Shown: one piece after another, positions 34,036 to 62,031 of the stretch
Numbering within the stretch: position 1 is the first letter of the stretch
Layout of the letters: the number at the start of each line of letters is the position of its first letter
Origin: an uncultured Chloroflexia bacterium
GTDB lineage: Bacteria > Chloroflexota > Limnocylindria > Limnocylindrales > CSP1-4
Length of the DNA stretch: 64,000 bases
Direction: 5' to 3'
Assembly (NCBI GenBank): GCA_963707215.1
Contig: CAVPPB010000002.1
Location: forward strand, 64,001 to 128,000
The notes under the pieces: model-generated
The model's database searches: none
The model's input: the letters and a program-made list of their open reading frames with translations, nothing else
Told to the model about the DNA's origin: nothing
Translations under genes and position numbers: made by a program

Positions 34036-34160
34036 GGTGTGCCTCCGCTCGTCTCCCTCGTCGTCTCGGCAGACCGTGCTGTGCCGCCCTGACGTCCCGG
34101 CGCCGGCCTGTGTTCCCCTGGGCAGCCGGGACCGCGCTCATGGGGGGCTACACTCCGGCG

Positions 34161-35263: not shown

Positions 35264-36250
35264 CTACGGCGACCCGGCTCGATCGAGGCTGCTGGGCGTC
35301 CAGGAGACCGTGATCTCGACCGGTCGGTCCCAGGCCGCCCGCAGCTCGGCGGCCAGCTCGGCGGCTGCCGCCGGTTCGTCGGGTCCGACGATGTCGAGGC
35401 GGAGCGTCGTCCCCTCGAGGTCGTAGGTCGTCACCTCCAGGTCCCGCTCCCCGATCCACGCCCGGACGATCGGCACGGCCTCCTGGGCCAGGAGCGCCTC
35501 GACCACCTGCTCCGCCGACCGCCAGGCCAGCGGGATGGTGATGACCGCGAGCGCGATCATCGCCACGATGAAGCCGTTGCGGAGTCGGCGTCGTTCGCGC
35601 AGCTGGGTCGGCGTGGGGGTCGCCCGGAAGGCGATGAAGACGATCGAGGCGGCGACGACGATGGCCGCCAGGTTCGTCAGGAAGAGGACGGTCGCGCCGG
35701 CCGCGTCATCCCATCGCCCGAGCTCGATGCAGATCCCGATGGTCGCCAGTGGAGGGACAAGCGAGACGGCGATGGCGACACCGGGGAGGGCGTCGGTGCC
35801 CGTCCGCCGGACGGCGACGTAGGCGCCGGCGGCGCCGGCGGCCAGGGCCACGCCGAGGTCCAGGAGCCCGGGCGCCGTCCGGGCATCGATCGATGGCGTC
35901 AGGACCAGTGGGTCCGGCATGATCGCCGAGACGATGATGCCGATGGCGACGACCCAGATCGAGCCGAGCGCGACCTGGGCGATGGTGATCGGCTGCCAGC
36001 GGGTCCGCCCGGTCACCAGCGCCGCCGCGATCGCCATGATCGCCCCGCCCAGGGGTGCCACGACCATCGCGCCGATGATCGAGGCGACGGAATCCTGGTA
36101 GAGCCCGAAGGCGGCGATGAAGCCCGCCAGGGTGAGCAGGACGGCGAAGGTCTGGACAGAGCGCCGGAAGGCGGGCCCCTCCGGGAAGAGATCGTCGAGC
36201 ACGGCGGGCCCGAGCGACATCCGGGCGTCGGGCAGCTTCGGCTGGGTCAT
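35264..36250 (-). CDS. DUF389-family membrane protein
   Basis: GLYQDSVASIIGAMVVAPL, ARTAPGLLDLGVALAAG, LPGVAIAVSLVPPL, LFLTN. Confidence 0.88.
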   Translation of the reverse strand: MTQPKLPDARMSLGPAVLDDLFPEGPAFRRSVQTFAVLLTLAGFIAAFGLYQDSVASIIGAMVVAPLGGAIMAIAAALVTGRTRWQPITIAQVALGSIWVVAIGIIVSAIMPDPLVLTPSIDARTAPGLLDLGVALAAGAAGAYVAVRRTGTDALPGVAIAVSLVPPLATIGICIELGRWDDAAGATVLFLTNLAAIVVAASIVFIAFRATPTPTQLRERRRLRNGFIVAMIALAVITIPLAWRSAEQVVEALLAQEAVPIVRAWIGERDLEVTTYDLEGTTLRLDIVGPDEPAAAAELAAELRAAWDRPVEITVSWTPSSLDRAGSP

Positions 36251-36497
36251 CGGATCAGGTCCCCAAGGGCGCTGCTGCGGTCCCATCGATCCGTGCCCGT
36301 CGCCGGAGCGGACTCTAGCGCCCAGCGGGGCGCGCGGTGGGGACTTCGCGCAGGTTCGGCCCGGTCGCCGTCCTGCCCGCCGAGCGGTCGCCGGCGCCGA
36401 CGTCGTCCAGGGACGATACTGATCGGGTCCCCCGCGCCGGGATCCATCGTCCGGGCGTCCGGAGCCCCCGCCGGGGCCTCACCACAGGAGATCGATC

Positions 36498-36992
36498 GTG
36501 AGCATCGGACCCATCCAGACCGTCGTCATCGGCTTCCCGACGACTGACCGCTTCGAAGGCCGTATCGCGGAGGAGCTGGGGCTCCTGAGCGACATCGGGC
36601 TCATCCGGATCATCAACGCCGTCTTCGTCACCCGGCAGGATGACGAGGCTGTGCTCCTGCAGGTCTCCGACCTCGATGACGAGCAGCGCGAGATGCTCGG
36701 GGCGGCGGTCGGGGCCGTGGTCGGCCTGGTGGCCGGCGGCGAGGAGGGTGCCGAGGTCGGCGCGGTGGCCGGCGCCATGGCGACCGAGGGCACCGGGGTC
36801 GCCGGGGCCCTGGCCGAGGACATCCTCGACGAGCTGCCGGACGGGACCGCCGCCCTCGTGCTGGTGGTCGAGCATCGCTGGCTCATCCCGCTCCGGGATG
36901 CGGTCCGGGATGCGGGCGGCGTCGTCCTCGCCCGGCAGACGGTCGGCCTCGAGGAGCTCGCGGCCCTGGGTGTCGCCCTCTCCGAGGACTGA
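36498..36992 (+). CDS. DUF6325/DUF1269-like protein (paralog 1)
   Basis: GPIQTVVIGFP..FEGRIAEEL..GLIRIIN, LPDGTAALVLVVEHRW..LRDAVRDAGG; CAGGAG RBS. Confidence 0.8.
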   Translation: MSIGPIQTVVIGFPTTDRFEGRIAEELGLLSDIGLIRIINAVFVTRQDDEAVLLQVSDLDDEQREMLGAAVGAVVGLVAGGEEGAEVGAVAGAMATEGTGVAGALAEDILDELPDGTAALVLVVEHRWLIPLRDAVRDAGGVVLARQTVGLEELAALGVALSED

Positions 36993-37037
36993 CGCTCCGA
37001 TGGTCCCGTGGCCGGCTCTCGATCCGGGGCCGGCCGC

Positions 37038-37463
37038 CTAGCGCCGTCGGGGATCGGTGAACCCGGCGTCCCGTGCGTCGACCAGCTCGATCCGGTTGCC
37101 GAACGGATCGTCGACGTAGCACCGTCGGATCGCCAACCCGCTCTCGTCGTCGTGGACGGGATAGCCGGCTGCCTGGACGGCCCGGCAGGCTCGCTCGAGG
37201 TCGGCGACCAGCAGGGCCGGGTGCGCCCTGCGACCCGCCCGGAACGGCGTCTCGACCCCCAGGTGGATGGTCACCCCCGGGCCCAGGAACCAGCAGCCGC
37301 CCCGGATCTTGAGGGCACGCGGCTTGGCGACCGGCCGCAGGCCCAGTAGTTCGCCGTAGAAGAGGCGGGCGAGCGCCTCCTCGCCCTTCGGCATCGCGAG
37401 CTGGACATGATCCAGGCCGACGACCTCGATCGCCGGCGTCCGGCGTGGTGCGCCGCTACTCAT
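37038..37463 (-). CDS. VOC/glyoxalase family protein
   Basis: LDHVQLAMP, FYGELLGL, GGCWF, IHLGVE, HPAL, DPFGNRIEL. Confidence 0.9.
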   Translation of the reverse strand: MSSGAPRRTPAIEVVGLDHVQLAMPKGEEALARLFYGELLGLRPVAKPRALKIRGGCWFLGPGVTIHLGVETPFRAGRRAHPALLVADLERACRAVQAAGYPVHDDESGLAIRRCYVDDPFGNRIELVDARDAGFTDPRRR

Positions 37464-37588
37464 CGAGCCTCCCGCACGGTCGTCGCTCGCCCCTTTGCCA
37501 TCTCGCGTCACGGTTCACCCCTGCCCGACCGGCGATCCCGTCGGGGATGCGTGCTCGACGAGCATCGTAGTCCCTGGCGTGCCCGCGT

Positions 37589-39250
37589 TCACCCGTCTCG
37601 AGCGGCCCGGACCGCGTCGATCGTCCGCCGGTACGTGCCGGCGACCGCCGCGGCGGCACCGGTCCGCTCCAGGACCGCGGCCACCTCCGGGTGGACCCGG
37701 GCGAGGTAGAGCGCGACCCCTTGCTGGTCGAGTCGCCCGGCCAGCTGGGCGATCATGTCCGCGCCGGGAACGTCGAGGCTGACGGTCGCCTCGATGTCGA
37801 TGACCACGGCGTGCACGTCCGTGTCGCCCTGGGCCAGCGCCGCGAGCGACGCGAGCAGGGTGTCGGCGTTGGCGAAGAACAGCGGCTCCTCGAGACGCAG
37901 GATCACGATCCCGGAGGGGATCCCGGCATCGGGCTCCTCGGCTGCTTCGACGAGCGTGTCGCCGATCACGGCCAGCGGGGTCAGACGTGCCGAGCTGGCC
38001 CGCCAGATGACCAGCGCCAGCGACAGGGCGACCGCGAGGAGGAGGCCCGGCAGGACGTCGAGCACGAGGACCCCGACGAGGGCGACCATCGCCAGCCAGA
38101 AGTCGGCAGGGCCCACGTGCCAGAGCCGCCGGAGCGTGGCCAGCTTGAACATCGAGGCGACCGCCACGACGACGATCGCCCCCAGGACGGCCTCCGGCAG
38201 CGGCTCGAACAGCGGCGTCAGGAAGAGCGCGACGGCGATCGTGATGCCGGCGGCGACGACGCCGGCGAGCTGGGTCTGCATCCCGGCGTGCTGGGCGGCA
38301 GCGGTCTTCGACAGGCTGCCGCCGATCGGGAAGCCCTGGAAGACGCCCGCGCCGACGTTGGCCGTGCCCAGGCCGATCAGCTCTTGGTTCGCATCGACCT
38401 GCTCGTTGTGCTCCCGGGCCAGCTCGCGCGCCGGTCCGTAGGCCTCGGCGAAGGTGAGCAGGGTGAGCCCGACGGCACCCGAGAGGAGCAGGGCGAGGTC
38501 GTCGAGCCGGATCTCGGGCAGCCTGGGGCCCGCCAGCCCGGACGGCAGGTCCCCGACCACCTCGACCCCGCGGGCTTCGAGCCCGAGGATCACCGAGGCT
38601 GCGATCCCGAGCACGAGGGCGACCAGCGGTCCGGGGATCCGCTCGTCGAGCCGCTCGAGCCCGACCATCAGCCCGATGGCGAGCAGACCGACCAGGGTCG
38701 TCGGCAGGTGAGCCTCGGGCAGCTCCTGGACGATCGTCGCGATCTGGACGAAGAAGTCTCCGCCCGACCCCTCGATCCCCAGGATCTTCGGCACCTGGCG
38801 GACCGAGATGACGAGGGCGAGTCCCGACACGAAGCCGGCCAGGACCGAGGCCGAGAAGAACTGGGCCAGCCGACCGGCCCGGGCGAGGCCCGCGAGGATC
38901 GAGACGAGCCCGGCGAGGATCGCGAGCGCGGACGTGAGGGTGACGTACTCGAGGGTGCCCTGGGGGACGAGCGCGCCGATCGTCGCCGCGGAGAAGACCG
39001 CCTGGGTGGAGCTGACGACGACGACCAGCCGTCTCGACGAGCCGAAGATCGCGTACAGGAGCAGCGCGGGTGGCGCTGCGTAGAAGGCGGCCTCCGGGCT
39101 GACCCCGGCGAGCTGGGCGTAGGCCATCCCCTCGGGCACGAGGAGGGCCGTGATCGTGATCCCGGCGAGGGCGTCCCGAACGAGCCAGCCGCGTCGATAC
39201 CCGGGCAGCCAGCCGAGGATGGGGACGAGCGTCCGGAGCGTGGTCAGCAT
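37589..39250 (-). CDS. SulP/SLC26 anion transporter with STAS domain
   Basis: DALAGITITALLVPEGMAYAQLAG, FGSSR, DANQELIGLG, LFFANA, C-terminal STAS. Confidence 0.93.
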   Translation of the reverse strand: MLTTLRTLVPILGWLPGYRRGWLVRDALAGITITALLVPEGMAYAQLAGVSPEAAFYAAPPALLLYAIFGSSRRLVVVVSSTQAVFSAATIGALVPQGTLEYVTLTSALAILAGLVSILAGLARAGRLAQFFSASVLAGFVSGLALVISVRQVPKILGIEGSGGDFFVQIATIVQELPEAHLPTTLVGLLAIGLMVGLERLDERIPGPLVALVLGIAASVILGLEARGVEVVGDLPSGLAGPRLPEIRLDDLALLLSGAVGLTLLTFAEAYGPARELAREHNEQVDANQELIGLGTANVGAGVFQGFPIGGSLSKTAAAQHAGMQTQLAGVVAAGITIAVALFLTPLFEPLPEAVLGAIVVVAVASMFKLATLRRLWHVGPADFWLAMVALVGVLVLDVLPGLLLAVALSLALVIWRASSARLTPLAVIGDTLVEAAEEPDAGIPSGIVILRLEEPLFFANADTLLASLAALAQGDTDVHAVVIDIEATVSLDVPGADMIAQLAGRLDQQGVALYLARVHPEVAAVLERTGAAAAVAGTYRRTIDAVRAARDG

Positions 39251-39388
39251 CGGCGGATCACCACGCATCCATCATGCCAGTCGCCAGCGACCCGGCTGGG
39301 CTCCTTGCACCGCATGGGTCTCGCAGAGCCCGGTCAGCGGCAGAGGCGGTCCAGGGTCAACGCGCGGTCGACTCCCGGTCGGCGGCGA

Positions 39389-39595
39389 CTAGAACCGGCG
39401 ACGTCCCGGCGTGACGGCCGCGCCCACGACGGCGGCCTTGGCGACCGGCGACGGGCCTGGCTTCACGGCCGCGCCCACGACGGCGGCCTTGGCGACCGGC
39501 GACGGGCCTGGCTTCACGGCCGCGCCCACGACGGCGGCCTTGGCGACCGGCGCACCGATCACCCCTACTCCTCGACGACCGGGTCCGAGCGGCAT
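39389..39595 (-). CDS. 68-aa tandem-repeat peptide (3x PVAKAAVVGAAV)
   Basis: AAGGAG RBS; ATG lies 1 nt after the DUF6325 stop; the repeat keeps frame (51 bp = 17 aa). Confidence 0.7.
   Translation of the reverse strand: MPLGPGRRGVGVIGAPVAKAAVVGAAVKPGPSPVAKAAVVGAAVKPGPSPVAKAAVVGAAVTPGRRRF
39414..39552. repeat. perfect 51-bp tandem repeat, 2.7 copies
   Basis: Units start at 39414, 39465 and 39516 (last one 37 bp); identical sequence ACGGCCGCGCCCACGACGGCGGCCTTGGCGACCGGCG-ACGGGCCTGGCTTC. Confidence 0.95.
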
Positions 39596-39596
39596 G

Positions 39597-40055
39597 TCAG
39601 GCTCCTTGTGCTTCGAGCGCGGCGTCGGCCTCGACGGCGGCGATGAGGGCCTGGATCGGGATCCGGCCGTTGGCGATCAGCTGACCACCCGCTCGGCGCA
39701 TCGCCGATGCGAATGGCGCAGCCCACAGGTTCTCGTAGACGAGGACGCCGGCAACGCTGCCGGGATCCATCGCGGCCGCAAGGTGATCGACATCCTCTTC
39801 GGCCAGCGTCTGGACGAGCTCGGTCTCGATCCGCGCGAGCTCACCGAGCTCGTCGAGATCACCCAGCTCCTGGGCCATGACCGTCCCGTCCTCCCCCTTC
39901 TGGAGGATGAGCAGGTCCATGAGTCGGATGATCCCGGCATCGTGGAGACGGAGGAGCTGGGCGGCGCCTTCGCCGGTGAAGTTCTGCTGCCCTGCTGGGA
40001 ACTCGACGATCAGGTAGTCGACGGGCCCGAGCTCGTCGAGCGATCTGTCTGTCAT
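39597..40055 (-). CDS. DUF6325-like protein (paralog 2)
   Basis: LGPVDYLIVEFP..NFTGE..GIIRLMDL, PGSVAGVLVYENLWAAPFASAMRRAGGQLIANGRIP; GGAGGAG RBS. Confidence 0.85.
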   Translation of the reverse strand: MTDRSLDELGPVDYLIVEFPAGQQNFTGEGAAQLLRLHDAGIIRLMDLLILQKGEDGTVMAQELGDLDELGELARIETELVQTLAEEDVDHLAAAMDPGSVAGVLVYENLWAAPFASAMRRAGGQLIANGRIPIQALIAAVEADAALEAQGA

Positions 40056-40164
40056 GACTCCTCCACTTCGGTGGTTCGAAGAACGAGCCTCGCCGACGTC
40101 GTGGTCGAGGCGGCACAGTTGGTCCCCGAGCCTCTCAGAGGGTGCTCCCATACGAGCCCACCCG

Positions 40165-40281
40165 CCTCCCCCCATCGGGAGGACTCGGCCCGCGGACGCC
40201 ACCCCGCTCGCGGGTCCGGTGTGGCGTCTGCGGGTGCCGTGGCCGCCCGAGCCATCGCAGCGTCCACCCGCGCGGGGGATG
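40165..40281. promoter_or_regulatory. two palindromic MalT-box-like sites in the divergent promoter
   Basis: CCTCCC-N6-GGGAGG (40165-40182) and CCACCC-N6-GGGATG (40264-40281). Confidence 0.55.
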
Positions 40282-40377
40282 ACCGTGGGCGTGCCGGGAT
40301 GGTGTGATTGGACTGACGACGTACCAGGCGGTGTCCTGGTCGCGAGAACCGGGCGCATCCGGGCAAGGAGCACGAAC

Positions 40378-41544
40378 ATGACCGAGGTCCAGAGAGTCTC
40401 CACCACGGTGCCGCTGAACTGGAACGAGGTCTGGTTCACCAATTGCCCCATGGTGTCCGCCAACAACGTTGACCAGGAGCTCGGCTGGTGCCGCGAGGAG
40501 TTCAAGAAGATCGGCGTCGAGTACGCCTACTTCCGCCACGCACCCGAGAACAACTGGTACCCGCACTACATCCACAACCTCGACAACCTCATCCGCTTCG
40601 GCGGCCTGTACCCGCCGATCCACGTGAACGCCGACCTCCGCCGCACCGTGCTGCTGGGAGCGACCTGGGTCTATGAAGGCGGCTGCATGGCGGTCCGCGC
40701 CCGTGACGACGTCTTCAAGATGGCGGACCTCAAGGGCAAGAAGATCGGCATCAGCAAGAGCCTGAACACCATCAAGAACGACTGGTGGCGGATCCAGGAG
40801 CACATGGGCATCCTGAACATGCTCAAACTCCACGACATGACGATGGACGACATCGAGCTCGTCGAGTTCCCGTACCCCGACGACTGGTACGACAAGCCCG
40901 AGATGCTCATCCCGCCGATGAACAACCCGTCCGAGCTGTGGATGCGGCGCGACCACAAGCACGACCTCGCCTTCCGCCCGCTCGAGAAGGCGCTGCTCGG
41001 CGGCGTCGTCGACGCCATCTACACCCAGAGCAAGCCCTTCCAGCATCTCCAGGAGGCCACGGGCCAGCTCAAGATGATCGAGGACCTGTCCCGGTACCCC
41101 GACTGGACCATCCAGGTCGCCAACACCCCCGCGGTGATCACATGCACCAGGGAGATGGCCGACGAGCATCCCGAGCTCGTCATCGCCTACATGAAGGCCA
41201 TGGTCAAGGTCGGGCGCTGGGCCAATGAGCACAAGCGCGCCGCCGGCGCGATCCTCAACCGCCAGACGTTCTATCTGGATGCCGAGGATACGTACCAGGG
41301 CATCAAGCACGTCGACATGGTGCCGAGCCTGAGTGCGATGAACATGCAGACGATCAAGATCGGCAAGGACTTCATGTTCAGCCACGGCTACATCAAGAAC
41401 GACTTCGACGTGGATGAGTGGGCCCGCCCGGAGTTCCTGGAAAGGGCGTTCGAGGAAGTCCTCAAGGAGGAGTGGGAGCGCCGGAGCTGGAGCAAGCTTC
41501 CCGAGGGCGGCGGGCTCGAGGCCGAAGGCGTGCGACTGGGCTGA
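40378..41544 (+). CDS. DszB-like (desulfinase family, periplasmic-binding-protein fold) protein, no signal peptide
   Basis: FTNCP, PHYIH, IRFGGLYPP, RTVLLGAT, ADLKGKKIGIS, GVVDAIY and FDVDEWARPEFL are colinear with DszB motifs recalled from memory; AAGGAG RBS. Confidence 0.75.
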   Translation: MTEVQRVSTTVPLNWNEVWFTNCPMVSANNVDQELGWCREEFKKIGVEYAYFRHAPENNWYPHYIHNLDNLIRFGGLYPPIHVNADLRRTVLLGATWVYEGGCMAVRARDDVFKMADLKGKKIGISKSLNTIKNDWWRIQEHMGILNMLKLHDMTMDDIELVEFPYPDDWYDKPEMLIPPMNNPSELWMRRDHKHDLAFRPLEKALLGGVVDAIYTQSKPFQHLQEATGQLKMIEDLSRYPDWTIQVANTPAVITCTREMADEHPELVIAYMKAMVKVGRWANEHKRAAGAILNRQTFYLDAEDTYQGIKHVDMVPSLSAMNMQTIKIGKDFMFSHGYIKNDFDVDEWARPEFLERAFEEVLKEEWERRSWSKLPEGGGLEAEGVRLG

Positions 41545-41586
41545 GCCGGCAGGCATCGATCGTGTGCCCCCCCAGGGGCGTACGCG

Positions 41587-42024
41587 GTGAACCTCTGGTC
41601 GCTCGCGGCTCTCGGCTGGACGGCGCGTAGCTGTCTGGACGCGCAGCTCTACTACGCGAACGCCCTCACGGTGCGTGACGAGATCATGGGTCTGGTCGCG
41701 GATCCGGACACGCCGGTCAGGGCCATCCTCATCGACGCCGCGGCCCAGGCTGGCCTGGACATCACGGGCTCGGACATGCTGAAGGGCCTCGTCAGCCGGT
41801 TGCGCAAGCGAGGTATCGATGTGGACTTCGCCGATGTCCGCCAGCCGGTCCTGGGGTTTGCGGCTCGGACGAACCTGCTTGAGCTGATCGGGGAGGACCA
41901 CCTGTTCCCGACCATCCAAGCCGCCGTCGACCGGATCGAAGCACCGTCTCGGACCGGTCAAGCAACCACCACCCGATCCAGCACCGAGAGGCCCGCGCCG
42001 ACACAGGAAGGGAGTCATCGATGA
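41587..42024 (+). pseudogene. orphan STAS domain, probable 3' remnant of a SulP gene
   Basis: LDAQLYYANA..RAILIDAAAQAGLDITGSDML..IGEDHLFPTIQAAV matches the SulP STAS domains in this window; no TM domain and no clear RBS. Confidence 0.65.
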
Positions 42025-42575
42025 GCTCGAATCACCCGATCGAGACGATCGCCGAGGCCCGGCGGACCAGCCTTGGGCTGTACGTCACGAGCAAGGAGGC
42101 GTACGACATGTGGCAGGCGGACCCCAGCCTCAGGATCCTCGACGTCCGCACGCCGGAGGAGTACGTCTTCGTCGGCCACGCGCCCATGGCCACCAACGTC
42201 CCCTTCGCGCTCCAGACCTACGAATGGGACCCCGAGCAGAGTGCGCTGCGCTGGGAGCTCAACCCGGACTTCGTGACGGCGGTGAAGGCTTGGGCCAGGA
42301 CCGATGAGACCCTCCTCGTCTCATGCCGGTCGGGGGGCCGCAGCGCGAAGGCGATCGACATGCTCGCGGCGGCCGGCTACACGAACCTCTTCAACGTCCT
42401 CGATGGCATGGAGGGAAGCAAGATCGAGGACCGCGACAGCGTCTTCGACGGCGTGCGGATGAAGAACGGCTGGAAGAACTCCGGGCTGCCCTGGACGTAC
42501 GAGATCGATCCCAGCCGGATGAAGCTGCCACCTCGGCAGAGCCGGACGTTCGTGGCCGGGAGCGAGCACGACTGA
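42021..42575 (+). CDS. single-domain rhodanese/sulfurtransferase
   Basis: ILDVRTPEEY..GH, active loop CRSGGRS, NVLDGMEG, GWKNSGLPW. Confidence 0.92.
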   Translation: MSSNHPIETIAEARRTSLGLYVTSKEAYDMWQADPSLRILDVRTPEEYVFVGHAPMATNVPFALQTYEWDPEQSALRWELNPDFVTAVKAWARTDETLLVSCRSGGRSAKAIDMLAAAGYTNLFNVLDGMEGSKIEDRDSVFDGVRMKNGWKNSGLPWTYEIDPSRMKLPPRQSRTFVAGSEHD

Positions 42576-42604
42576 GCGGTCGCCTTGCAGCGGCCAGCGT
42601 TCTC

Positions 42605-43261
42605 CTACGCGGCCCCCCGGGTCCGGCCGAGGCGAACGAGCGGGAGCGCCAGCAACAGTGCCGTCGCCGCCACGTAGAGGCCGACGGCGACGAACGGCGC
42701 GATCAATGCGAAGGCGATGGCGACGATCCAGATAACGTTCGAGATCCTGCGCTGGCGGGTCATCGCCGCGAGCGTCTCGTCGGCCACCTCGTCCAGCAGC
42801 AGCGTCTGATCTCCGACGAGATAGGCCATGAGGAAGGTCAGCATCAGCGATGCAGCCAGCACGTTGATCCCGTAGATGAGGACGGCGACCGCGACGTCGG
42901 GGCCGGTGAGGTTGCCCACCATCAGACTGGTCGTGAACGGGATGACGGCGACGAGGAGCAGGAACAGCAGGTTGATCCCGGCCACGAGTCCGTCACTCCG
43001 CTGCATGAGCTTGGTCGTCCGCGCATGGGAGACCCAGCTGCCGCCGATGAACGCGAAGCTCATGAGATAGCCCAGGAACTCCGGCCATTGCTCGACGAGG
43101 GTCGGGAGCAGTGCCTCGGGTCCCACCGGGACCGTCAGCTCGAGGACGAGCAGGGTGATCGCGATCGCGAAGACGCCATCGGAGAAGGCGTCGAGGCGGT
43201 CGAGCGGTAGGGCGTCGGCAGGACGACGCTTCCGGTCGCCCGCGACGTCTCGGTCAGTCAT
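42605..43261 (-). CDS. TMEM175-family (DUF1211) putative K+ channel
   Basis: Signature RLDAFSDGVFAIAITLLVLEL, W..H, N..FL....PF.T; 6 TM. Confidence 0.88.
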   Translation of the reverse strand: MTDRDVAGDRKRRPADALPLDRLDAFSDGVFAIAITLLVLELTVPVGPEALLPTLVEQWPEFLGYLMSFAFIGGSWVSHARTTKLMQRSDGLVAGINLLFLLLVAVIPFTTSLMVGNLTGPDVAVAVLIYGINVLAASLMLTFLMAYLVGDQTLLLDEVADETLAAMTRQRRISNVIWIVAIAFALIAPFVAVGLYVAATALLLALPLVRLGRTRGAA

Positions 43262-43562
43262 GGCACATCTCCTCGTCGCGGGTCGGGCCAACACGATCGC
43301 GGACCGAGTCTACGTGAGCCCGAGCGGCAGCCTCCCACCCTGGGTGCAGGCGCTCGAACGGGATCCGAGCGCCCGGGCATCAGGGCCCGAGCGCTCGGTC
43401 CGATGGGGCCGGACACGCCGGCTCAGCCGGGCGGTGGGCGCTCTCAGTCCGACTCGGCCTCGGCTTCCTCAGCCGCGAGGACGGTGGCGAGCGCCTCTTC
43501 GGCAGCTTCCGGGCATAGCGCCACAGGGTGGTCCGGGTCAGAGGGCCGCCCACTCCCGGCGG

Positions 43563-43868
43563 TCAGCCGCCCAGGAGCTTGGCCTTGGCAGCCGCGAACT
43601 CCTCGTCGGTGAGGACGCCGGCGGTGTGCAGGTCGCCGAGCTGCTTGAGCTGCTCCATGTCGATCCCGGCTGCCGGCGCGGCCGGGGCAGGAGCGGGAGC
43701 CGCGGCGGCGGCCTGCTGCTCGTAGGCGGCCTGCTGCTGGGCCTGCTGCTCGGCCGCCTGGTTGGCGTACTTCTGCTGCTGGTGGTGGCTGACGGCCCCG
43801 GCGGTGCCGGCGACCACCGCCGTCGTCGCTGCCGCCCGGACGAGAGGTCGTCCGCGTCGTCGCATCAT
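43563..43868 (-). CDS. SHOCT-domain protein
   Basis: N-terminal RAAATTAVVAGTAGAVS, Gln/Ala/Pro linker, C-terminal QLKQLGDLHTAGVLTDEEFAAAKAKLLG; AAGGAG RBS. Confidence 0.9.
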   Translation of the reverse strand: MMRRRGRPLVRAAATTAVVAGTAGAVSHHQQQKYANQAAEQQAQQQAAYEQQAAAAAPAPAPAAPAAGIDMEQLKQLGDLHTAGVLTDEEFAAAKAKLLGG

Positions 43869-43925
43869 GATGGTCTGGTCTCCTTGGCTTGCTCTGGGGG
43901 GTCTGGACGATCCGGTCCGGTCGGG

Positions 43926-44354
43926 TCAGCCGGCGGCCTCGAGCTCGGCGCTGACCTCCTCGAGGACCTCGGGCGGGATGACGACCCGGTCGACGAGGAA
44001 GCCGCCCTTGGCCGCGATCGCCTCCTTGAGGTCGACGGCCCAGCGATGCTCGAAGAGCATGGCCAGCCCCGCGGTGTCCGGCGGCAGCGAGAGGGCGATC
44101 GCCTCGAGGTCCTCCGGCGTGAAGAGGCCCATCCGGCCGTCGAGGAGCGGGGCGAACGAGGCGAAGCGCGGGTCGTCCTTGGCGTCGAGCTCGAGGATGA
44201 CCGCGCCGCCGTCGGCCGCTCGCCCGACGAAGACGACGTCGACGAGCCGGATGATGCCCTGGTCGACGACCTCACCGAGCTCCCGGGCGATGCTCCCGTC
44301 GAACTGGGTGCCCTCGAAGCCGATGACGATGTATTCCAGCGGGCCGAGTGTCAT
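43926..44354 (-). CDS. DUF6325-like protein (paralog 3)
   Basis: LGPLEYIVIGFEG..FDGSI..GIIRLVD, LPPDTAGLAMLFEHRWA..AKGG; AGGAGG RBS. Confidence 0.85.
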   Translation of the reverse strand: MTLGPLEYIVIGFEGTQFDGSIARELGEVVDQGIIRLVDVVFVGRAADGGAVILELDAKDDPRFASFAPLLDGRMGLFTPEDLEAIALSLPPDTAGLAMLFEHRWAVDLKEAIAAKGGFLVDRVVIPPEVLEEVSAELEAAG

Positions 44355-44529
44355 GGATGGCCTCCTGCCTGTGCAGCCCGTCCCTCGACCAGGGCCCTGC
44401 GGCTGCGAGCGTTCATGGTCGACACGACCCCTTCCGGGTGCCCCGAGTGGCGACCCCGCAAGTGCGAACCGGGCTTCCCGACCGGGGACGGTCGCGTGCG
44501 AGCACAGTCGCCCAACGTCCGTGCCGGCG

Positions 44530-44547
44530 CATCCCCCCGGAGGGAGG
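44530..44547. promoter_or_regulatory. palindromic MalT-box-like site
   Basis: CATCCC-N6-GGGAGG, between the divergent DUF6325 and MalT-like genes. Confidence 0.5.
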
Positions 44548-44697
44548 AGCTGCCCATCCCCGTCCGAGTCGGCGGCTCTGGACCACCGCGCCTCGCTCGG
44601 CTAGCCTTCTCAGGGATGGATGGAGTGTCCCGGTGCTGGACCCTGCGGAGGATCCGGCTTGCGCACGCTGCCTGACGCCTCCGTGCCTCAGCCGGAG

Positions 44698-46962
44698 ATG
44701 CTCCGTCCCATAGCGCTCGACCCGGGTGAGCAGCCCCGCTCCGGCGCCCCCGGTCTCATGGAGGCCAAGCTCACGCCGCCTCGCCCCCGTGCAAGGACGG
44801 TGCGCCGGACGAGGCTCCTCCGCCGAGTCCGCGTCGCTCGAGATCTGCGGGTCCTCTCGATCGTCGCCCCGGCCGGCTACGGCAAGACGAGCCTCCTGGT
44901 CCAACTGGCGCGCCAGGCCCCTGACGCCACCGCCTGGCTGACGGCCGACGACGGTGACAACGATCCTGTCGTGTTCCTCACGAATCTGGCGTCAGCGATC
45001 GACCGGATCGTGCCCGTGGACGCAGGGGTCTTCGACGCGATCGTGTCTCCGCACCTGTCGGAGCGGGCTGCGGTCGGACGCCTTCTGGGCGCGATGTCCG
45101 GACGAGCCGAGCCCTCGATCGTCGCGATCGACGATGCGGACCGGATCATCGACCGCGCCTGCCTCGATGGCCTTGCCGAGTTCATCACCTACCTGCCTGA
45201 CGGGTGGCAGGTGATGATCGCCGGTCGGCGGCCAGCCGGCCTGCCCTTCCCTCGCTGGCAGATCGACGGATCGATGCTCGAGATCGGCCCTCGTGACCTC
45301 GCGATGGACGAGACGGAGGCGTCCAGCCTGGGCCGCCACCTCGGGCTCGCGCTCGAAGCCGAAACGGTGTCGCGGTTGACGCGGGATACGGAGGGTTGGC
45401 CAGCGCTGCTCGCGCTTGCCGCCCTGGAGGCCATCCGATCGCCGCGGCTCGATGGCGGCAGCGATGACCGCACCGAACCGACCCGAGGCCGGCACATGAC
45501 CGACTACCTTCGGTCCGAAGTGCTCGAGTCCCGCTCCGGAACGGAGGTCGAGTTCCTGACCCGCACCTCGATCCTCGAGCGCCTTTCCGGCCCGGTCTGC
45601 GCCACGGTCACCGGCCTGTCGGGATCTACGGACATCCTGGCCGGCCTCGCGCGATCGACCCTGCTCATCGACGAATACGGCGCGTCCTATCGCTACCACA
45701 GCCTTCTCCGCGACTTCCTGCGCGCCGAGCTGGCGGAGCGCGAGCCGGATCGGGTCGCCGAGCTGCACCGCCGGGCCGCGGCATGGTACAAGGCCGACGG
45801 CGCCCTTGATCTCGCGGTCGACCACGCGTTCGCGGCCGCCGATCCCGATCTCGCCGCGAACCTGGCGGGCCAGGGGATGGCTCGATACCACTGGTCGGGG
45901 CGGCGCGCAACCGTGAGATCGTGGTTCACGCGGTTCGACGACGAGGCCCTCGGGCGGCAGCCATGGCTCGCCGTCCTCGCCGCCTGGGAGGAGCTCGCGG
46001 CTGGCGACGTCGTTGCGACCGAGCGGCTGGCGGACATCGCCGACCGCGGGAAGTCCGAGGGACGGCCCCCCGACGGGACCGCTTCGTTCGAGTCAGGGCG
46101 CGCGATGCTGCGGGCCGTGATGGTGCGCAGGGGTGCGGCGGATGCGCTGGAGAATGCCACCCGGGCGGCGGAGCTGGAGACGGCCGGCAGTCCCTGGCGT
46201 GACTTCGCGCTCTGGACACTGGCCACGACCCGGCGGACCCTGGGTGACGAGGAGGGCGCGGACGCGGCGCTCGCGGATGCAGTCGCCGCCGCGCGATCGG
46301 CCGGCAACGATGGGCTCTGCTACTGCCTGCTCGGGCACCGCTCGCTGCTGGCCATCGAGCGGCACGACCTAACGGCTGGCGCTGCGTTCGCGGCCGAAGC
46401 TCGTTCGATCGGGGCGTCCCGGAGCGTGGATGGCTACCTTTCCTCAGTCCTCGCTCGCGCCGCCGCCATCAGGATCGCCGTCGACCGCGGCGACATCGCG
46501 GCCGCGCGCGCGCAGCTTGCCGGGGTCGTGGGACTGCGACCGCTGCTGACGGCCGCGGCGCCCGCGCTGGCCGTCATGTCGCTCATGAGCCTCGCCCGGG
46601 CCCATCTCGTTGTGGATGACCCGGGCGGCGCGCGCGCTTTGCTGGTACAGGCCGGCCACGTGATCCGCCAGCGTCCCGACCTCGGGGTCCTGCCCGACGA
46701 GGTAGCGGCGCTCCGCACGGAAGTCGCCGCGCGCCCGTTCGCCCTCGGTGGCGCCACGACCCTGACGACCGCCGAGCTCCGCGTGCTGGCGCTGCTGCCC
46801 TACTACCTGTCCTTCAAGGAGATCGGACAGCGGCTCGGCACCCGGTCGAGCACCGTGAAGACGCATGCGCTGTCGATCTACGGCAAGCTCGGCGCCTCCT
46901 CCCGGAGCGAGGCGGTCGATCTGGCTGTCCAGGCGGGCCTCCTTGAACGCTTCCCGCGGTAG
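44698..46962 (+). CDS. MalT-type STAND ATPase / LuxR-HTH transcriptional regulator
   Basis: EAKLTPP, Walker A APAGYGKTS, DNDP..F, TEGWPA, YRYHSLLRDFL, ELHRRAAAWY, HTH LTTAELRVL..TVKTH..IYGKLGASSRSEAV. Confidence 0.92.
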   Translation: MLRPIALDPGEQPRSGAPGLMEAKLTPPRPRARTVRRTRLLRRVRVARDLRVLSIVAPAGYGKTSLLVQLARQAPDATAWLTADDGDNDPVVFLTNLASAIDRIVPVDAGVFDAIVSPHLSERAAVGRLLGAMSGRAEPSIVAIDDADRIIDRACLDGLAEFITYLPDGWQVMIAGRRPAGLPFPRWQIDGSMLEIGPRDLAMDETEASSLGRHLGLALEAETVSRLTRDTEGWPALLALAALEAIRSPRLDGGSDDRTEPTRGRHMTDYLRSEVLESRSGTEVEFLTRTSILERLSGPVCATVTGLSGSTDILAGLARSTLLIDEYGASYRYHSLLRDFLRAELAEREPDRVAELHRRAAAWYKADGALDLAVDHAFAAADPDLAANLAGQGMARYHWSGRRATVRSWFTRFDDEALGRQPWLAVLAAWEELAAGDVVATERLADIADRGKSEGRPPDGTASFESGRAMLRAVMVRRGAADALENATRAAELETAGSPWRDFALWTLATTRRTLGDEEGADAALADAVAAARSAGNDGLCYCLLGHRSLLAIERHDLTAGAAFAAEARSIGASRSVDGYLSSVLARAAAIRIAVDRGDIAAARAQLAGVVGLRPLLTAAAPALAVMSLMSLARAHLVVDDPGGARALLVQAGHVIRQRPDLGVLPDEVAALRTEVAARPFALGGATTLTTAELRVLALLPYYLSFKEIGQRLGTRSSTVKTHALSIYGKLGASSRSEAVDLAVQAGLLERFPR

Positions 46963-46970
46963 ACCAGCGG

Positions 46971-46988
46971 CCTCCGCCATCACGGAGG
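46971..46988. promoter_or_regulatory. palindromic MalT-box-like site
   Basis: CCTCCG-N6-CGGAGG right after the regulator stop, upstream of the CMD-like gene. Confidence 0.5.
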
Positions 46989-47007
46989 ATGCGACCGGAC
47001 CAGGTGC

Positions 47008-47424
47008 GTGATGGAGTGGCGAGGACCAGTCATCGCAGCCGGGTGCAGTGTGTCGCGGACGATCACCAGCGAGGAAATCCTCCGGAGGCTGACCGTCGGG
47101 GACCGAGCGTACTGCCGGACCGTCATGTCGAGCGGTGCGGACGACCCGCTTCCCCCGCTCGACGCGCGCAGCGTGGCGCTGCTTCGCCTCGGCTGGTCGA
47201 TCACCGGCGGTTCCGTGAGCCCGATGTGGCAGCGGCGTGTCGGCGAAGCCCTCGACGCGGGACTGACCTTCGACGAGATCGTCGGGTCGCTCCTTGCTCT
47301 CGCGCCGATCATCGGGCTCGATCGGGTCGTGGCGATCGCTCCGCACCTGGCGCGAGCGCTCGGCTATGACGTCGACGCAGCGCTCGAGGAGCTGGACCCG
47401 GCACCGCCTGGATCAGGGCCGTAG
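47008..47424 (+). CDS. carboxymuconolactone decarboxylase/AhpD-like fold protein (start uncertain)
   Basis: LDARSVALLRLG, ALDAGLTFDEIVGSLLALAPIIG..RVV..AP.LA.ALGYD; no CxxC. Confidence 0.7.
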   Translation: MMEWRGPVIAAGCSVSRTITSEEILRRLTVGDRAYCRTVMSSGADDPLPPLDARSVALLRLGWSITGGSVSPMWQRRVGEALDAGLTFDEIVGSLLALAPIIGLDRVVAIAPHLARALGYDVDAALEELDPAPPGSGP

Positions 47425-49056: not shown

Positions 49057-49173
49057 GACCGAACGATATCGGACCGGGGAAGCCGTTCCCGCGCTCAGGC
49101 AAGCGCGCGGGAGGGCCAGCACCGGTCTGGCCGCCCGACGCGTACCATCGGCGTGAGACCCGAGGTGACCGCC

Positions 49174-49518
49174 ATGCCAGATGCCACCGTCATCCCCGAC
49201 ATCCGGGCCGAGGTCGAGATCCCGACCGACGGGATCCTCTCCCGGACGGTCCACTCGTCCGAGCGAGCCCGGGTGGTGGTGTTCGGCTTCGATGCCGGCC
49301 AGGAGCTCAGCGAGCACACCGCATCGATGCCGGCGATCATCGAGATCCTCGACGGCGAGGCCGACGTCCTGCTGGGCGACACGCACCACCGGATGGGGCC
49401 CGGGGCCTGGGCCCACATGCCGGCCGGGCTGCGTCATGCCGTCCGGGCGACGTCCCGACTCCGGATGCTCCTCGTCCTGCTTCCCGGTCCCGCGGCTCCC
49501 GACGATCCCGGCACGTAG
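49174..49518 (+). CDS. cupin-domain protein
   Basis: GILSRT, FGFDAGQELSEHTA, ILDGEA, MPAGLRHAVRA. Confidence 0.88.
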   Translation: MPDATVIPDIRAEVEIPTDGILSRTVHSSERARVVVFGFDAGQELSEHTASMPAIIEILDGEADVLLGDTHHRMGPGAWAHMPAGLRHAVRATSRLRMLLVLLPGPAAPDDPGT

Positions 49519-49558
49519 CCCCGAGGCCGCCCTGCCGCGCCGAGGTCCGGGTCGTGGG

Positions 49559-50095: not shown

Positions 50096-50299
50096 CGGTC
50101 CTCCCGTGAGCATGAGGGTCCGGGTGGCGTCGGGCGACGCCGGCCGAACCTCAGGATAGCGAGCCCGACGGCGATCCCCATGGGCTGGCCGGACCGTCCC
50201 GTGACGACGCGGGACCGATGACGGGGGGCCATCCGGTGCGGTAGGGTCCGAGCCGAGGGAGTCGCCGCCCGAGCGGTGGGCCCGACCGAGGAGGGAGCC

Positions 50300-52186
50300 A
50301 TGAGCGACGGCGCCACGGCGCCCCGCGACCGATCCGGCGCCCTCGCCGCGGCTACGCGATACCTGCCCGGGATCGGCGTCCTGATCTCGTACCAGCGGTC
50401 CTGGCTTCCCCGCGACATCGGGGCCGGCCTCGTCCTCACGGCGATCCTGGTGCCGGCCGGCATGGGCTATGCGGAGGCATCCGGCCTGCCGGCGATCACC
50501 GGCCTCTATGCCACGATCGTCCCGCTGCTCGTCTACGCGCTCGTCGGACCGTCCCGCATCCTCGTCCTCGGCCCGGACTCGTCGCTCGTCGCCCTCATCG
50601 CGGCCGCCGTGCTGCCGCTCGCGGCCGGCGATCCGGAGCGAGCCGTCGCGGTCGCCGGGCTCCTGGCCCTCATGACCGGCGCCATCATCGCGGTCCTCGG
50701 GATCGCCCGGCTCGGGTTCATCACCGAGCTCCTCTCGGACCCCGTCCGGAACGGCTACCTGACCGGGATCGCGGTGACCGTCGTGGTGTCCCAGCTGCCG
50801 AAGCTGTTCGGCTTCTCCGTCGACGCGGTCGGCTTCATCGGTGACCTGCTGGCGTTCGTCGGCGGGATCGCCGACGGCCTCACCGAGCCGGTCGCCCTCG
50901 CCCTTGGCGTGGGATCGCTGGCGGTCATCTACGGTCTCCGGGCCATCCGCTTCCCGATCCCGGGGATCCTCGTGGCCGTCGTCGCCGCGACATTGGTGTC
51001 GGCCGTGCTCGGACTGGAGGCGGCGGCCGGGATCTCGGTCGTCGGCGTGCTGCCCAGCGGTCTGCCAGGCTTCTCGGTGCCGCCGCTCGAGCTGGGCCTG
51101 GTCATCGACCTGGCCCCGGCCGCCATCGGCATCGCCGTCGTCGCGGCCGCCGACACCAGCGTCCTGTCGCGCACCTTCGCGGCCCGCCACGGCGACGACG
51201 TCGACCCGGACCAGGAGCTCGTGGGCCTCGGGGCGGCCAACGCAGTGGCGGGATTCTTCAGCGGCTTCCCGATCTCGTCCAGCTCGTCGCGGACCCCGGT
51301 GGCCGAAGCAGCCGGCGCCCGGACCCAGCTGACCGGGGTCGTCGGGGCGCTCGCGGTCACCGGCCTCATCGTCTTCGCTCCCGGGCTGCTGGCCGCGCTG
51401 CCGAGCGCGACCCTGGCCGCCGTGGTCATCGTCGCCGCGACCTCGCTCGTGGACCTTCGCTCCCTGGTCCGGCTTTATCGGGTCCGTCGCTCGGAGTTCC
51501 TGCTGGCCCTCGTCTCGTTCGGCGGCGTCGTCTTCCTCGGCGTCATCCAGGGGATCTTCCTGGCCGTCGCGATGTCGCTCCTGGCGTTCGTCCGCCGGTC
51601 GTGGCAACCGCACGACGCCATCCTGGGCCGAGCCAAGGGCGTCAAGGGCTACCACGATCTCGCCTACTACCCCAGTGCCCGGCGGATCCCGGGGCTGCTC
51701 CTGTACCGGTTCGACGCCCCGCTGTTCTTCGCCAACGCGGACCTCTTCGCGGACCGGGTCCTCGCCCGGATCCGGAGCGCACCGGAGCCCGTCCGCTGGG
51801 TCGTCGTGGCAGCCGAGCCCGTCACGGACGTCGACACGACCGCGGCGGCCAGGCTGGACCTCCTGCTCGACGACCTGGAGCAGCGGGGGATCGTGCTGGC
51901 CTTCGCCGGCCTCAAGGACTTCGTCAAGGACCGCCTCCGGGCGACCGGGACGCTCGAGCGGATCGGGGAGGACCGCTGCTACCCGACGATGGGGACGGCC
52001 GTCGACGCCTACGTCGAGGCGACGGGGACCGACTGGATCGACTGGGAGGAGGCAGCCGAGGCCGGTCGGGCCGACGCCTGGGGCGGAGGCGCGCCGGGCG
52101 AGGACGTGGGCCCGCCGGCCCCCGATCAGGTCCCTCCCGACGACGGGACCCCGGGGACGGGGCCGACCGACCGTCCGACCGACTAG
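50300..52186 (+). CDS. SulP/SLC26 anion transporter with STAS domain
   Basis: DIGAGLVLTAILVPAGMGYAEASGLP, GPDS, DQEL, SSSRT, YRFDAPLFFANA, TDVDTTAA. Confidence 0.94.
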   Translation: MSDGATAPRDRSGALAAATRYLPGIGVLISYQRSWLPRDIGAGLVLTAILVPAGMGYAEASGLPAITGLYATIVPLLVYALVGPSRILVLGPDSSLVALIAAAVLPLAAGDPERAVAVAGLLALMTGAIIAVLGIARLGFITELLSDPVRNGYLTGIAVTVVVSQLPKLFGFSVDAVGFIGDLLAFVGGIADGLTEPVALALGVGSLAVIYGLRAIRFPIPGILVAVVAATLVSAVLGLEAAAGISVVGVLPSGLPGFSVPPLELGLVIDLAPAAIGIAVVAAADTSVLSRTFAARHGDDVDPDQELVGLGAANAVAGFFSGFPISSSSSRTPVAEAAGARTQLTGVVGALAVTGLIVFAPGLLAALPSATLAAVVIVAATSLVDLRSLVRLYRVRRSEFLLALVSFGGVVFLGVIQGIFLAVAMSLLAFVRRSWQPHDAILGRAKGVKGYHDLAYYPSARRIPGLLLYRFDAPLFFANADLFADRVLARIRSAPEPVRWVVVAAEPVTDVDTTAAARLDLLLDDLEQRGIVLAFAGLKDFVKDRLRATGTLERIGEDRCYPTMGTAVDAYVEATGTDWIDWEEAAEAGRADAWGGGAPGEDVGPPAPDQVPPDDGTPGTGPTDRPTD

Positions 52187-62028: not shown

Positions 62029-62031
62029 CGC

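Follow-up and report, generated by a model that had tools for sequence, protein, structure and literature searches.

A MalT-type STAND activator, DUF6325 proteins and exchangeable cargo in an uncultured Chloroflexota bacterium: a candidate fragment of an MRLGR-type regulon

A 64,000-nucleotide stretch of DNA from an uncultured Chloroflexia bacterium (GenBank contig CAVPPB010000002.1, positions 64,001 to 128,000; hereafter the window) contains a block of about 12 kb in which a gene for a MalT-type STAND activator is surrounded by genes for three DUF6325-like proteins, a SHOCT protein, a repeat microprotein, anion and potassium transporters and putative sulfur enzymes (Table 1). The window has a GC content of ~72%, and the closest named homologues and loci belong to Chloroflexota, one of them labelled Limnocylindrales. 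Taken as a whole, the block is best explained as the Chloroflexota fragment of a regulon of the type described in Actinoplanes as MRLGR, a reading to which a probability of about 0.6 is assigned. Pfam, NCBIfam and PDB matches recovered every gene named in the original prediction, including a second SulP gene (SulP2) outside the block; the gene list was correct as far as it was given, though it omitted a VOC/glyoxalase gene.

The regulator combines a STAND nucleotide-binding oligomerization (NOD) ATPase, a helical arm and sensor, and a C-terminal LuxR-type helix-turn-helix (HTH) that matches Pfam GerE. It matches the NCBIfam MalT model (E 6e-69, 233 bits, below the equivalog cut-off of 537 bits) and PDB entry 8bob (E 2e-34), with Walker A (APAGYGKT) and Walker B (IDD) motifs aligned and residues G40, G42, K43, D125 and D126 kept among 15 regulators; 8bob is also the top Foldseek match of its structure model (pLDDT 86.7). 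As in Escherichia coli MalT, NOD and arm are joined to a LuxR HTH and the putative half-site resembles the MalT box, which is quoted as GGGGA(T/G)GAGG near -35 (PMC7567727). Unlike E. coli MalT, the window regulator is ~170 residues shorter than the 903-position model, its sensor is unmatched by sequence, its predicted sites are inverted repeats, and its apparent targets are not maltose genes. Similarity is limited to residues 3-365, which make up the NOD and arm, against a construct of 420 residues, and Pfam TPR_MalT is matched by one relative and not by the window regulator, in whose sensor a helical-repeat region is predicted. In a phylogenetic tree, the window regulator falls within a four-row Chloroflexota clade (support 100/100), which itself sits within a supported nine-row group of regulators neighbouring DUF6325 genes.

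The surroundings of DUF6325 genes were compared across 80 loci around b-type members of the family, the best 80 of at least 593 confirmed matches; the set is biased to the b-type subfamily by its b-type query, and its loci are related to each other. Seventeen were treated as Chloroflexota, the remainder being mostly Actinomycetota. Genes were called heuristically, with some short or frameshifted genes missed, and Pfam was applied to 39 cluster representatives and to 105 of 190 further selected neighbours. Linkage was judged by the decay of frequency with distance, in thirds of the flank, and by control families.

These loci bear directly on the palindrome that the original prediction, giving no explicit pattern, had noticed in three intergenic regions. 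The pattern tested in the window, C[AC]TCC[CG]-N6-[CG]GGA[GT]G, was chosen after the fact and has three matches in the 64 kb, all in the block (40165, 44530 and 46971); a fourth site at 40261-40281 brings the count to four sites in the three regions. The palindrome is accepted as real because independent loci carry the motif. The top inverted repeat of an unbiased search, CATC-N10-GATG, was present in 21 of 254 upstream regions of recurrent neighbours, compared with 6 of 736 others. The consensus from the 80 loci is TCA[CT]CC-N5-GG[GA]TGATG, and that of the Chloroflexota loci TCATCC-N5-GGATGA. At a cut-off of 12 bits, a matrix trained on DUF6325 upstream regions alone recovered 32 of the 70 regions used for training; it also scored in 36 of 184 neighbour promoters kept out of training, in 29 of 736 other promoters and in 5 of 1840 shuffles (Fisher p 5e-11 for the held-out neighbour promoters), and the 29 'other' promoters with a site include those of further cargo (SHOCT, CMD, AI-2E, BrkB and K+ channel genes). 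Strong sites occur in 41 of the 80 loci.

Spacing provides a second line of evidence. Among 66 sites, 36 have a -10-like hexamer of the form xA...T beginning at +21 and a further 12 have it at +22; this is the geometry of an activator site overlapping the -35 region, the transcription starts themselves being located by proxy only. A model of site plus -10 element, trained on the 17 Chloroflexota loci with the window excluded (an all-loci version was also made), placed 46971 (+), 44530 (-), 40261 (+) and 40165 (-) as the top four positions of the 64 kb, with scores of 23.6 to 15.7 and the next position at 12.5. All four are intergenic, face genes and lie 59-176 nucleotides from start codons; they include the variants CCTCC/GGAGG, and the full xA...T form is present in two of their -10 candidates. 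Equivalent sites stand at the same places in the related loci L006, L007 and L017: the counterpart of 44530 lies at 8489 in L006, that of 40261 at 5325 in L007, and 46971 is matched at the same position in all three. In the window scan, no comparable site preceded DUF389, DUF6325a (the DUF1269-type copy), TMEM175 or SulP2; a weak palindrome at 50097-50117 before SulP2 has no -10 element. A generic promoter scan gave no sigma-70 site and two terminator matches, the latter at chance level. Ten loci (L029, L031, L036, L039, L040, L043, L051, L065, L078 and L085) carry upstream a spacer-less palindrome of the TCACCC-GGGTGA type; the regulators of three of these (L036, L039 and L085) group weakly in the tree (82/86), and a regulator subfamily may read a different spacing.

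Both the motif and its position agree with a system that has been tested by mutation. In Actinoplanes, a 51-gene region, the MRLGR, is activated by a MalT-like protein, as indicated by deletion and overexpression data (strain SE50/110; Droste et al. 2020, PMC7567727; statements on this and other cited papers refer to the portions covered here). Its motif, TCATCC-5nt-GGATGA, lies 34.4 +/- 1 nucleotides from the start site, in agreement with the -10 spacing across the present loci, and a SHOCT gene and three DUF1269-labelled genes are among its targets; deletion of malT lowers SHOCT expression ~2500-fold and that of the adjacent DUF1269 gene ~300-fold (PMC7567727). The block and the MRLGR share a MalT-like LuxR activator inside the cluster, a palindrome overlapping -35, SHOCT and DUF1269/DUF6325 genes and a gene order that is shuffled between species, and the MRLGR was left without an assigned purpose in that account. 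Further cargo is common to the MRLGR and the 80 loci, namely AI-2E, BrkB/YihY, class II amidotransferase, DUF308, amino-acid permease, PPK2 and DUF2252 genes. The block differs from the MRLGR in its phylum, its size (12 kb rather than 51 genes), its degenerate sites and its cargo, which comprises DszB-like, rhodanese, SulP and CMD-like genes where the MRLGR has arginine deiminase and peptidases (PMC7567727).

Nonomuraea gerenzanensis, which is listed in a table of the same paper as holding MRLGR homologues (PMC7567727), was the first-listed match of the window regulator among 56 plasmid-collection records. Its region contains two MalT-like genes, three DUF1269/DUF6325-type genes, SHOCT, AI-2E, glucosidase, amylase and an arginine deiminase operon, together with 10 sites of at least 14 bits; a MalT-like gene in an aromatic-catabolism cluster had no site of at least 14 bits in 31 kb. 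DUF6325a is 37-39% identical to homologues in this site-rich region. With the motif enriched upstream of DUF6325 genes and their neighbours, an activator-like position and a match to a tested system, co-regulation by the MalT-type protein through the palindrome, as originally proposed, is well supported. High confidence attaches to the regulon architecture, and it is likely, if somewhat less certain, that the window regulator itself acts on the four sites.

The invariant part of this architecture appears to be a pair of small proteins. The DUF6325 profile covers 5072 clusters at 50% identity. Three DUF6325-like paralogs were reported in the block, and homology holds for all three, whereas the Pfam family (PF19850, cut-off 23.4 bits) is matched by two only, DUF6325b at 33.7 and DUF6325c at 38.5 bits; DUF6325a instead matches DUF1269 (28.5 bits, cut-off 26.9), is related to its paralogs at 33% identity (E 2e-19) and carries a Gly-rich insert. 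Behind b-type DUF6325 genes, a homologue of the window microprotein is found in 78 of 80 loci, nearly always 1-2 nucleotides after the stop codon; of the two misses, one lies at a contig edge and one has a frameshifted DUF6325 gene, yet the peptide is seen. In the window, the microprotein begins 1 nucleotide beyond the stop codon of DUF6325b, and its ribosome site (AAGGAG) lies within that gene. The number of repeats varies from 1 to 4 per locus, with two in 57 loci, and mismatches by codon position (0.16/0.12/0.53) are dominated by the third position; by these sequence criteria the microprotein is a real gene under purifying selection. Its profile finds 972 homologue clusters, and among the 120 listed none has a Pfam domain and nearly all are named 'hypothetical'.

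The two partners are oppositely charged, with a median net charge of -22 for DUF6325 and +11 for the microprotein. Other DUF6325 types are followed by SHOCT in five of five plasmid loci read, one of them divergent, and the N-terminal motif of SHOCT proteins resembles one microprotein repeat by eye. No microprotein-type open reading frame was seen behind the Gly-insert members, either in the five short cases among the 80 loci or behind the window copy. DUF6325 and its partner are considered rather likely to work as one unit. The hydrophobic hairpin, which in DUF1269-type members is present in cis, may here be provided in trans by the partner. A far more speculative extension, considered improbable at present, is a split module in which an acidic alpha/beta DUF6325/DUF1269 protein and a basic repeat microprotein providing one to four hairpin copies could scaffold DUF6325 oligomers at the membrane, serving as the invariant effector or signal input of a STAND-controlled stress regulon across Actinomycetota and Chloroflexota, a soil counterpart of the enterobacterial acid fitness island.

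Structural searches with DUF6325b (model pLDDT 91.4) gave no Foldseek match at E 0.001, and the best VIA match (Z 4.0) was among small ferredoxin- and MinE-like folds, which is no proof of a new fold; PDB-sequence profile matches were short and look spurious, and an Atlas search returned DUF6325 clusters alone. Complex prediction for DUF6325b and the microprotein scored 0.10 against a mark of 0.32 and was counted neither way. Apparent DUF6325-SHOCT and DUF6325-receiver fusions among the cluster representatives (P0142, P0231 and P0183) seem to have arisen by frameshift or read-through and were left unused. In a single case (L062:3152-4303, minus strand), a DUF6325-like domain is fused via acidic Ala-rich repeats to a C-terminal LuxR HTH (GerE E 4e-6), which hints at a role in signalling.

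Around this core, the cargo is exchangeable. Sulfatase genes occur in 35 of the 80 loci, regulators in 23 and SulP in 14, followed by cation/H+ antiporter (10), DUF2252 (10), DUF7144 (9), CMD-like (8), ClC (7), formylglycine-generating enzyme (FGE; 7), K+ channel (6), anaerobic sulfatase maturase (5), glutamate decarboxylase (4), cytochrome bd (4), DszB-like (3), aminoacyl-phosphatidylglycerol synthase (3), PPK2 (3), TMEM175 (2), rhodanese (2) and HdeD (2). An acid- or ion-related gene is present in 30 of 80 loci and a sulfur- or anion-related gene in 43, and a site precedes three of four glutamate decarboxylase genes. The nearest third of the flank holds 15 of 23 regulators, 10 of 14 SulP and 29 of 35 sulfatase genes, against 5 of 32 genes of control families. 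Concentration near DUF6325 (p 0.007 to 1e-8) holds for regulator, SulP, sulfatase and antiporter genes and not for the controls. The 5072 clusters of the DUF6325 profile and the strong sites in 41 of the 80 loci suggest a widespread regulon, which has a small fixed core, and the membrane, ion and sulfur theme originally proposed fits the predicted cargo of related loci.

The neighbourhood comparison bears out the association with the regulator and SulP; TMEM175 is found in two of the 80 loci, and DUF389 and VOC in none. The claim of one 12-kb system draws its limits too broadly, and DUF389, VOC, TMEM175, DUF6325a and SulP2 have no site of their own. DUF389 was rejected as a member, as the Actinoplanes DUF389 gene likewise is no part of the MRLGR and does not respond to malT deletion (PMC7567727), and both DUF389 and VOC look like passengers. 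Transcription from the DUF6325b promoter may extend into VOC, and TMEM175, a possible member at most, may be reached by read-through from DUF6325c-SHOCT. SulP is probably co-transcribed from the DUF6325b promoter: the 139-nucleotide gap before it has no terminator match, and the arrangement is repeated in L006, L025, L038 and L058.

The last of the four units consists of the CMD-like gene. The gene assigned to the CMD fold is present, though the family assignment fails in the protein itself, which has no CMD match in Pfam, and is weak in its relatives (E 1e-4 to 9e-3). It lies directly behind the regulator in L006, L007, L010, L017 and L049. L007 and L010 have two regulator-CMD pairs each within 20 kb, and the short gap between regulator and CMD gene holds a site in L006, L007 and L017.

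The DszB-like protein has C23, H63, R73 and G76 aligned with C27, H60, R70 and G73 of DszB (2'-hydroxybiphenyl-2-sulfinate desulfinase of the 4S pathway), whose active-site residues are named in PMC12168087; these Cys, His, Arg and Gly residues are kept in 117, 120, 120 and 118 of its 120 best homologues. Like DszB, it has a periplasmic-binding-protein-like sequence; unlike DszB, to which it is only remotely similar (E 7e-10), it neighbours STAS, rhodanese and SulP genes rather than dszA and dszC. It has no hydrophobic N-terminus. The 120 best matches are 78-91% identical and come from several phyla (named sources include Chloroflexi, Thermoleophilia, Alphaproteobacteria and Lutimonas), within a family of 3038 proteins at E 1e-20 that are mostly labelled ABC binding protein. 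The segment 40056-42575 has a lower GC content (0.655 vs 0.722), which is compatible with transfer.

Among related loci, L006 and L010 have rhodanese behind the DszB-like gene, and SulP stands beside that gene in L006, L010 and L007; L006 has SulP, DszB and rhodanese in a row, the gene heading this operon being 51% identical to SulP2. Because of these adjacencies, the simplest reading of the three genes is a route from sulfinate to sulfite with export. The lone STAS domain between the DszB-like and rhodanese genes is probably a SulP remnant: its best match (43%) is the C-terminus of a SulP in L014, and it has a lower GC content at third codon positions (0.81), with no transmembrane remnant found upstream. 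An orphan STAS domain with a role of its own was judged less likely.

Together, these observations place a MalT-type STAND gene beside four predicted promoters, in each of which inverted MalT-box-like half-sites end ~21 nucleotides before a -10-like hexamer, such that the right half overlaps -35. By analogy with E. coli MalT and the Actinoplanes mutants, the regulator would bind ATP and a small ligand, oligomerise, occupy both half-sites and recruit RNA polymerase. Four units would thereby be switched on: DUF6325b-microprotein-SulP(-VOC), DszB-like-(STAS remnant)-rhodanese, DUF6325c-SHOCT(-TMEM175) and the CMD-like gene. The fixed core would be an acidic DUF6325 protein and, co-translated with it, a basic partner rich in Ala and Val, either the repeat microprotein or a SHOCT protein. 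In this block, sulfite would be released from an organic sulfinate by the DszB-like enzyme; rhodanese would handle the transfer of the sulfur, and the oxyanion would leave or enter the cell through SulP. Taken over all loci, the interchangeable cargo may constitute a growth-phase-induced kit for cytoplasmic pH, ion balance and anion clearance, made up of arginine deiminase with its antiporter, glutamate decarboxylase, ClC, K+ channels, cation/H+ antiporter, HdeD, aminoacyl-phosphatidylglycerol synthase and sulfatase with SulP.

Arginine deiminase with an antiporter, glutamate decarboxylase, ClC, K+ channels, HdeD and aminoacyl-phosphatidylglycerol synthesis are standard parts of bacterial acid tolerance, and it is because the cargo includes them that growth-phase-induced housekeeping of pH, ions and anions is favoured, tentatively, as the purpose. 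A polyphosphate kinase gene outside the MRLGR that falls in the Actinoplanes malT mutant was also counted in its favour. In E. coli, the acid fitness island and the ydeNM sulfatase genes bring glutamate decarboxylase, HdeD, a chloride channel, an amino-acid antiporter and a sulfatase plus maturase under a common control that depends on growth phase, within an acid-resistance network controlled by GadE, GadX and EvgA. The likeness is in cargo only, the island having neither STAND control nor a DUF6325 core.

Several observations weigh against assigning the block to an MRLGR-type regulon, or against this purpose for it. Within the window, evidence for the palindrome is weak, with 3 matches against 0.66 expected and 2 of 100 shuffles reaching 3, and no excess is seen when one mismatch is allowed (13 vs 12.9 expected). 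The four sites are degenerate, scoring 6.1-10.8 bits on the DUF6325-trained matrix, below the 12-bit cut, and two of their four -10 candidates lack an A at position 2. The all-loci model ranks 46971, 44530, 40261 and 40165 only 20th, 2nd, 10th and 6th, and the top-four ranking by the Chloroflexota model shows conservation more than independence, since that model contains the equivalent sites of close relatives. Across the loci, sites are equally common without a nearby regulator (30/57) as with one (11/23), as expected of a regulon scattered over the chromosome, and another paralogue elsewhere in the genome could act on the window sites. The tree, which includes the Nonomuraea regulators, neither joins the window regulator with them nor clearly separates it from them, and a Nonomuraea DUF1269 gene with a Gly insert is followed by SHOCT, a partial exception to the cis/trans pattern. 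For the proposed purpose, pooled acid and ion genes are only weakly concentrated near DUF6325 (16/33, p 0.085), the drop of glutamate decarboxylase in the Actinoplanes mutant is not significant (M -2.5, padj 1), and the MRLGR gene list is without sulfatase, SulP or DszB-like annotation in the material covered (PMC7567727). The region rose in growth-series cultures kept at pH 6.7 and 30% oxygen (PMC7682106); acid outside the cell is therefore not a needed signal.

The same regulon could instead serve organosulfur scavenging or detoxification, with sensing of a sulfur compound inducing sulfatase or desulfinase, maturases, rhodanese and SulP. Sulfatase is the commonest neighbour, accompanied at lower frequency by FGE, anaerobic maturase, SulP, DszB-like and rhodanese genes; the C-x-P-x-R motif is kept in 26 of 26 full-length sulfatases, a site is present in 10 of 32 sulfatase upstream regions, and DszB-like, rhodanese and SulP genes are the window's own cargo. 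However, only one of the 26 sulfatases has a hydrophobic N-terminus, the Nonomuraea region has no sulfatase or SulP match, amino-acid catabolism and ion channels go unexplained, and in Actinoplanes, besides the lack of sulfatase and SulP annotation in the MRLGR, sulfate-assimilation genes are unchanged in the mutant (PMC7567727). This purpose is regarded as unlikely, though it is the strongest competitor to pH and ion housekeeping.

Droste et al. proposed a regulon that senses maltose or alpha-glucan, with a malto-oligosaccharide sensor like that of E. coli MalT and cargo for habitat-specific nutrition. In keeping with this, maltose gives higher MRLGR expression than glucose does, and malT shares an operon with glucosidase and amylase genes (PMC7567727); glucosidase and amylase recur in the Nonomuraea region, and an MGH1-like glucosidase in L039/L040. 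Maltose metabolism genes of Actinoplanes are nonetheless unaffected by malT, and ligand binding is absent from the measurements covered (PMC7567727). The restriction of MalT similarity to NOD and arm, with no TPR_MalT match in the window regulator, also counts against this reading. The window has a probable maltose/maltodextrin cluster of its own (LacI regulator, sugar ABC transporter and alpha-amylase genes, 6367-14312), which stands 25 kb away beside the LacI regulator and has no top-ranking site. Maltose sensing is a less probable reading still.

Equally doubtful is a regulon for survival at low energy or low oxygen, in which arginine deiminase and PPK2 would yield ATP without respiration and the membrane cargo would limit ion loss. 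The arginine deiminase operon is common to Actinoplanes (PMC7567727) and Nonomuraea, PPK2, cytochrome bd and anaerobic sulfatase maturase are among the cargo of the 80 loci, and a polyphosphate kinase gene outside the MRLGR falls in the malT mutant (M -4.9, padj 0.009; PMC7567727). Against this, three of the four cytochrome bd matches are in the farthest third of the flank, cytochrome bd trended up in the mutant, not significantly (PMC7567727), and induction took place at 30% dissolved oxygen (PMC7682106), though mycelial clumps could be hypoxic inside.

Finally, a chance pile of passengers at an insertion hotspot between ligC and ligD, with palindromes that are GC-rich noise or ribosome sites, might be suspected from the lack of a one-mismatch excess, the use of GGAGG as a Shine-Dalgarno word, the different gene order in every relative and the passenger-like DUF389 and VOC genes, but is largely refuted for the four sites, and very improbable overall, given their distance from start codons, their position kept in relatives, their fixed distance to the -10 element across loci and their match to the tested motif (PMC7567727). 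The MRLGR-type regulon with a DUF6325 core accordingly continues to be the preferred interpretation of the block.

Table 1. Genes and predicted regulator sites of the block, with the second SulP gene; positions are those of the window.
Feature	Position	Strand	Remarks
DUF389 membrane protein	35264..36250	-	Pfam E 1e-32; not supported as member
DUF6325 homologue of DUF1269 type (DUF6325a), internal Gly/Ala hairpin	36498..36992	+	No site found here
VOC/glyoxalase protein	37038..37463	-	Pfam; passenger or operon end
SulP anion transporter with STAS	37589..39250	-	Pfam E 8e-84
Basic repeat microprotein, 68 residues	39389..39595	-	Three copies of PVAKAAVVGAAV unit, 51-nucleotide DNA repeat
DUF6325 b-type, acidic (net charge -18), alpha/beta fold	39597..40055	-	Pfam
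Predicted regulator site before DUF6325b	40165..40185	-	-10 candidate CACCCT 21 nucleotides downstream
Predicted regulator site before DszB-like operon	40261..40281	+	-10 candidate TGTGAT 40303-40308
DszB-like putative sulfinate desulfinase	40378..41544	+	PDB 2de2 E 7e-10
Lone STAS domain	41587..42024	+	E 3e-10; similarity begins ~41635
Single-domain rhodanese, active-loop CRSGGRS	42021..42575	+	Pfam E 2e-11
TMEM175-type K+ channel	42605..43261	-	Pfam E 3e-25
SHOCT protein, basic Ala/Val-rich N-terminal motif	43563..43868	-	Pfam SHOCT E 6e-9
DUF6325 c-type, acidic (net charge -16)	43926..44354	-	Pfam PF19850
Predicted regulator site before DUF6325c	44530..44550	-	-10 candidate GACTGT 21 nucleotides downstream
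MalT-type STAND activator, 734 residues (NOD ATPase, helical arm and sensor, C-terminal LuxR HTH)	44758..46962	+	Frame open from 44620
Predicted regulator site before CMD-like gene, CCTCCGCC-N5-GGAGGATG	46971..46991	+	Weak -10 candidate TGGAGT 47012-47017
CMD-like protein without CxxC motif	47050..47424	+	Relatives match CMD weakly
Second SulP (SulP2), outside block	50300..52186	+	Pfam/NCBIfam

Gene order varies even between close relatives of the window locus. The genes for an ATP-dependent ligase (ligC, 33908-35257) and a LigD primase-polymerase (47561-49614) converge on the block and are each split across frames, which points to possible indel errors in the assembly; within the block the reading frames are open. 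The block may have been inserted between them, and these flanks are not common to close relatives. Between the SHOCT and TMEM175 genes, GC-rich inverted repeats built on CCGAGCGC (43349-43398) are a possible terminator or mRNA-stabilising hairpin. Elsewhere in the window, cupin and ferritin-like genes lie between ligD and SulP2 (49174-50095), NAD(P) transhydrogenase genes occupy 60607-63503, with the beta subunit in pieces and probably frameshifted, and tRNA-Glu(TTC) at 15510-15586 is the sole RNA gene found by Rfam.

The block cannot be called an undescribed regulon, as originally claimed: the regulator type, the motif and the core targets, including SHOCT and DUF1269 genes, are already described (PMC7567727). 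Literature searches, with most subscription journals and supplements outside their reach, found no work on DUF6325, on combinations of DUF1269, SHOCT and LuxR or on the cargo combinations; for DUF1269, no work on the present topic was found judging by title, and for the MRLGR the original paper alone was relevant. The DUF6325-microprotein pair is not mentioned in the text and tables of that paper covered here (PMC7567727). What appears to be undescribed is the reach of the regulon into Chloroflexota and many classes of Actinomycetota with shuffled cargo, the core DUF6325-microprotein pair and the synthesis of the regulon's cargo. The microprotein behind b-type DUF6325 and the DszB-like enzyme with desulfinase residues were likewise not found in the literature searched, the former being nameless and hence unsearchable by name.

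Until now, the MRLGR has been reported as an extensive region under strong regulation, found in a few close relatives of Actinoplanes and with no purpose assigned to it. The list of cargo across genomes gives hypotheses that can be tested, namely pH and ion balance, sulfur oxyanions and energy, and Actinoplanes mutants exist. The system would provide a second genetically tractable bacterial STAND activator, and both the microprotein and the DszB-like family, which is very conserved, offer specific uncharacterised targets for study.

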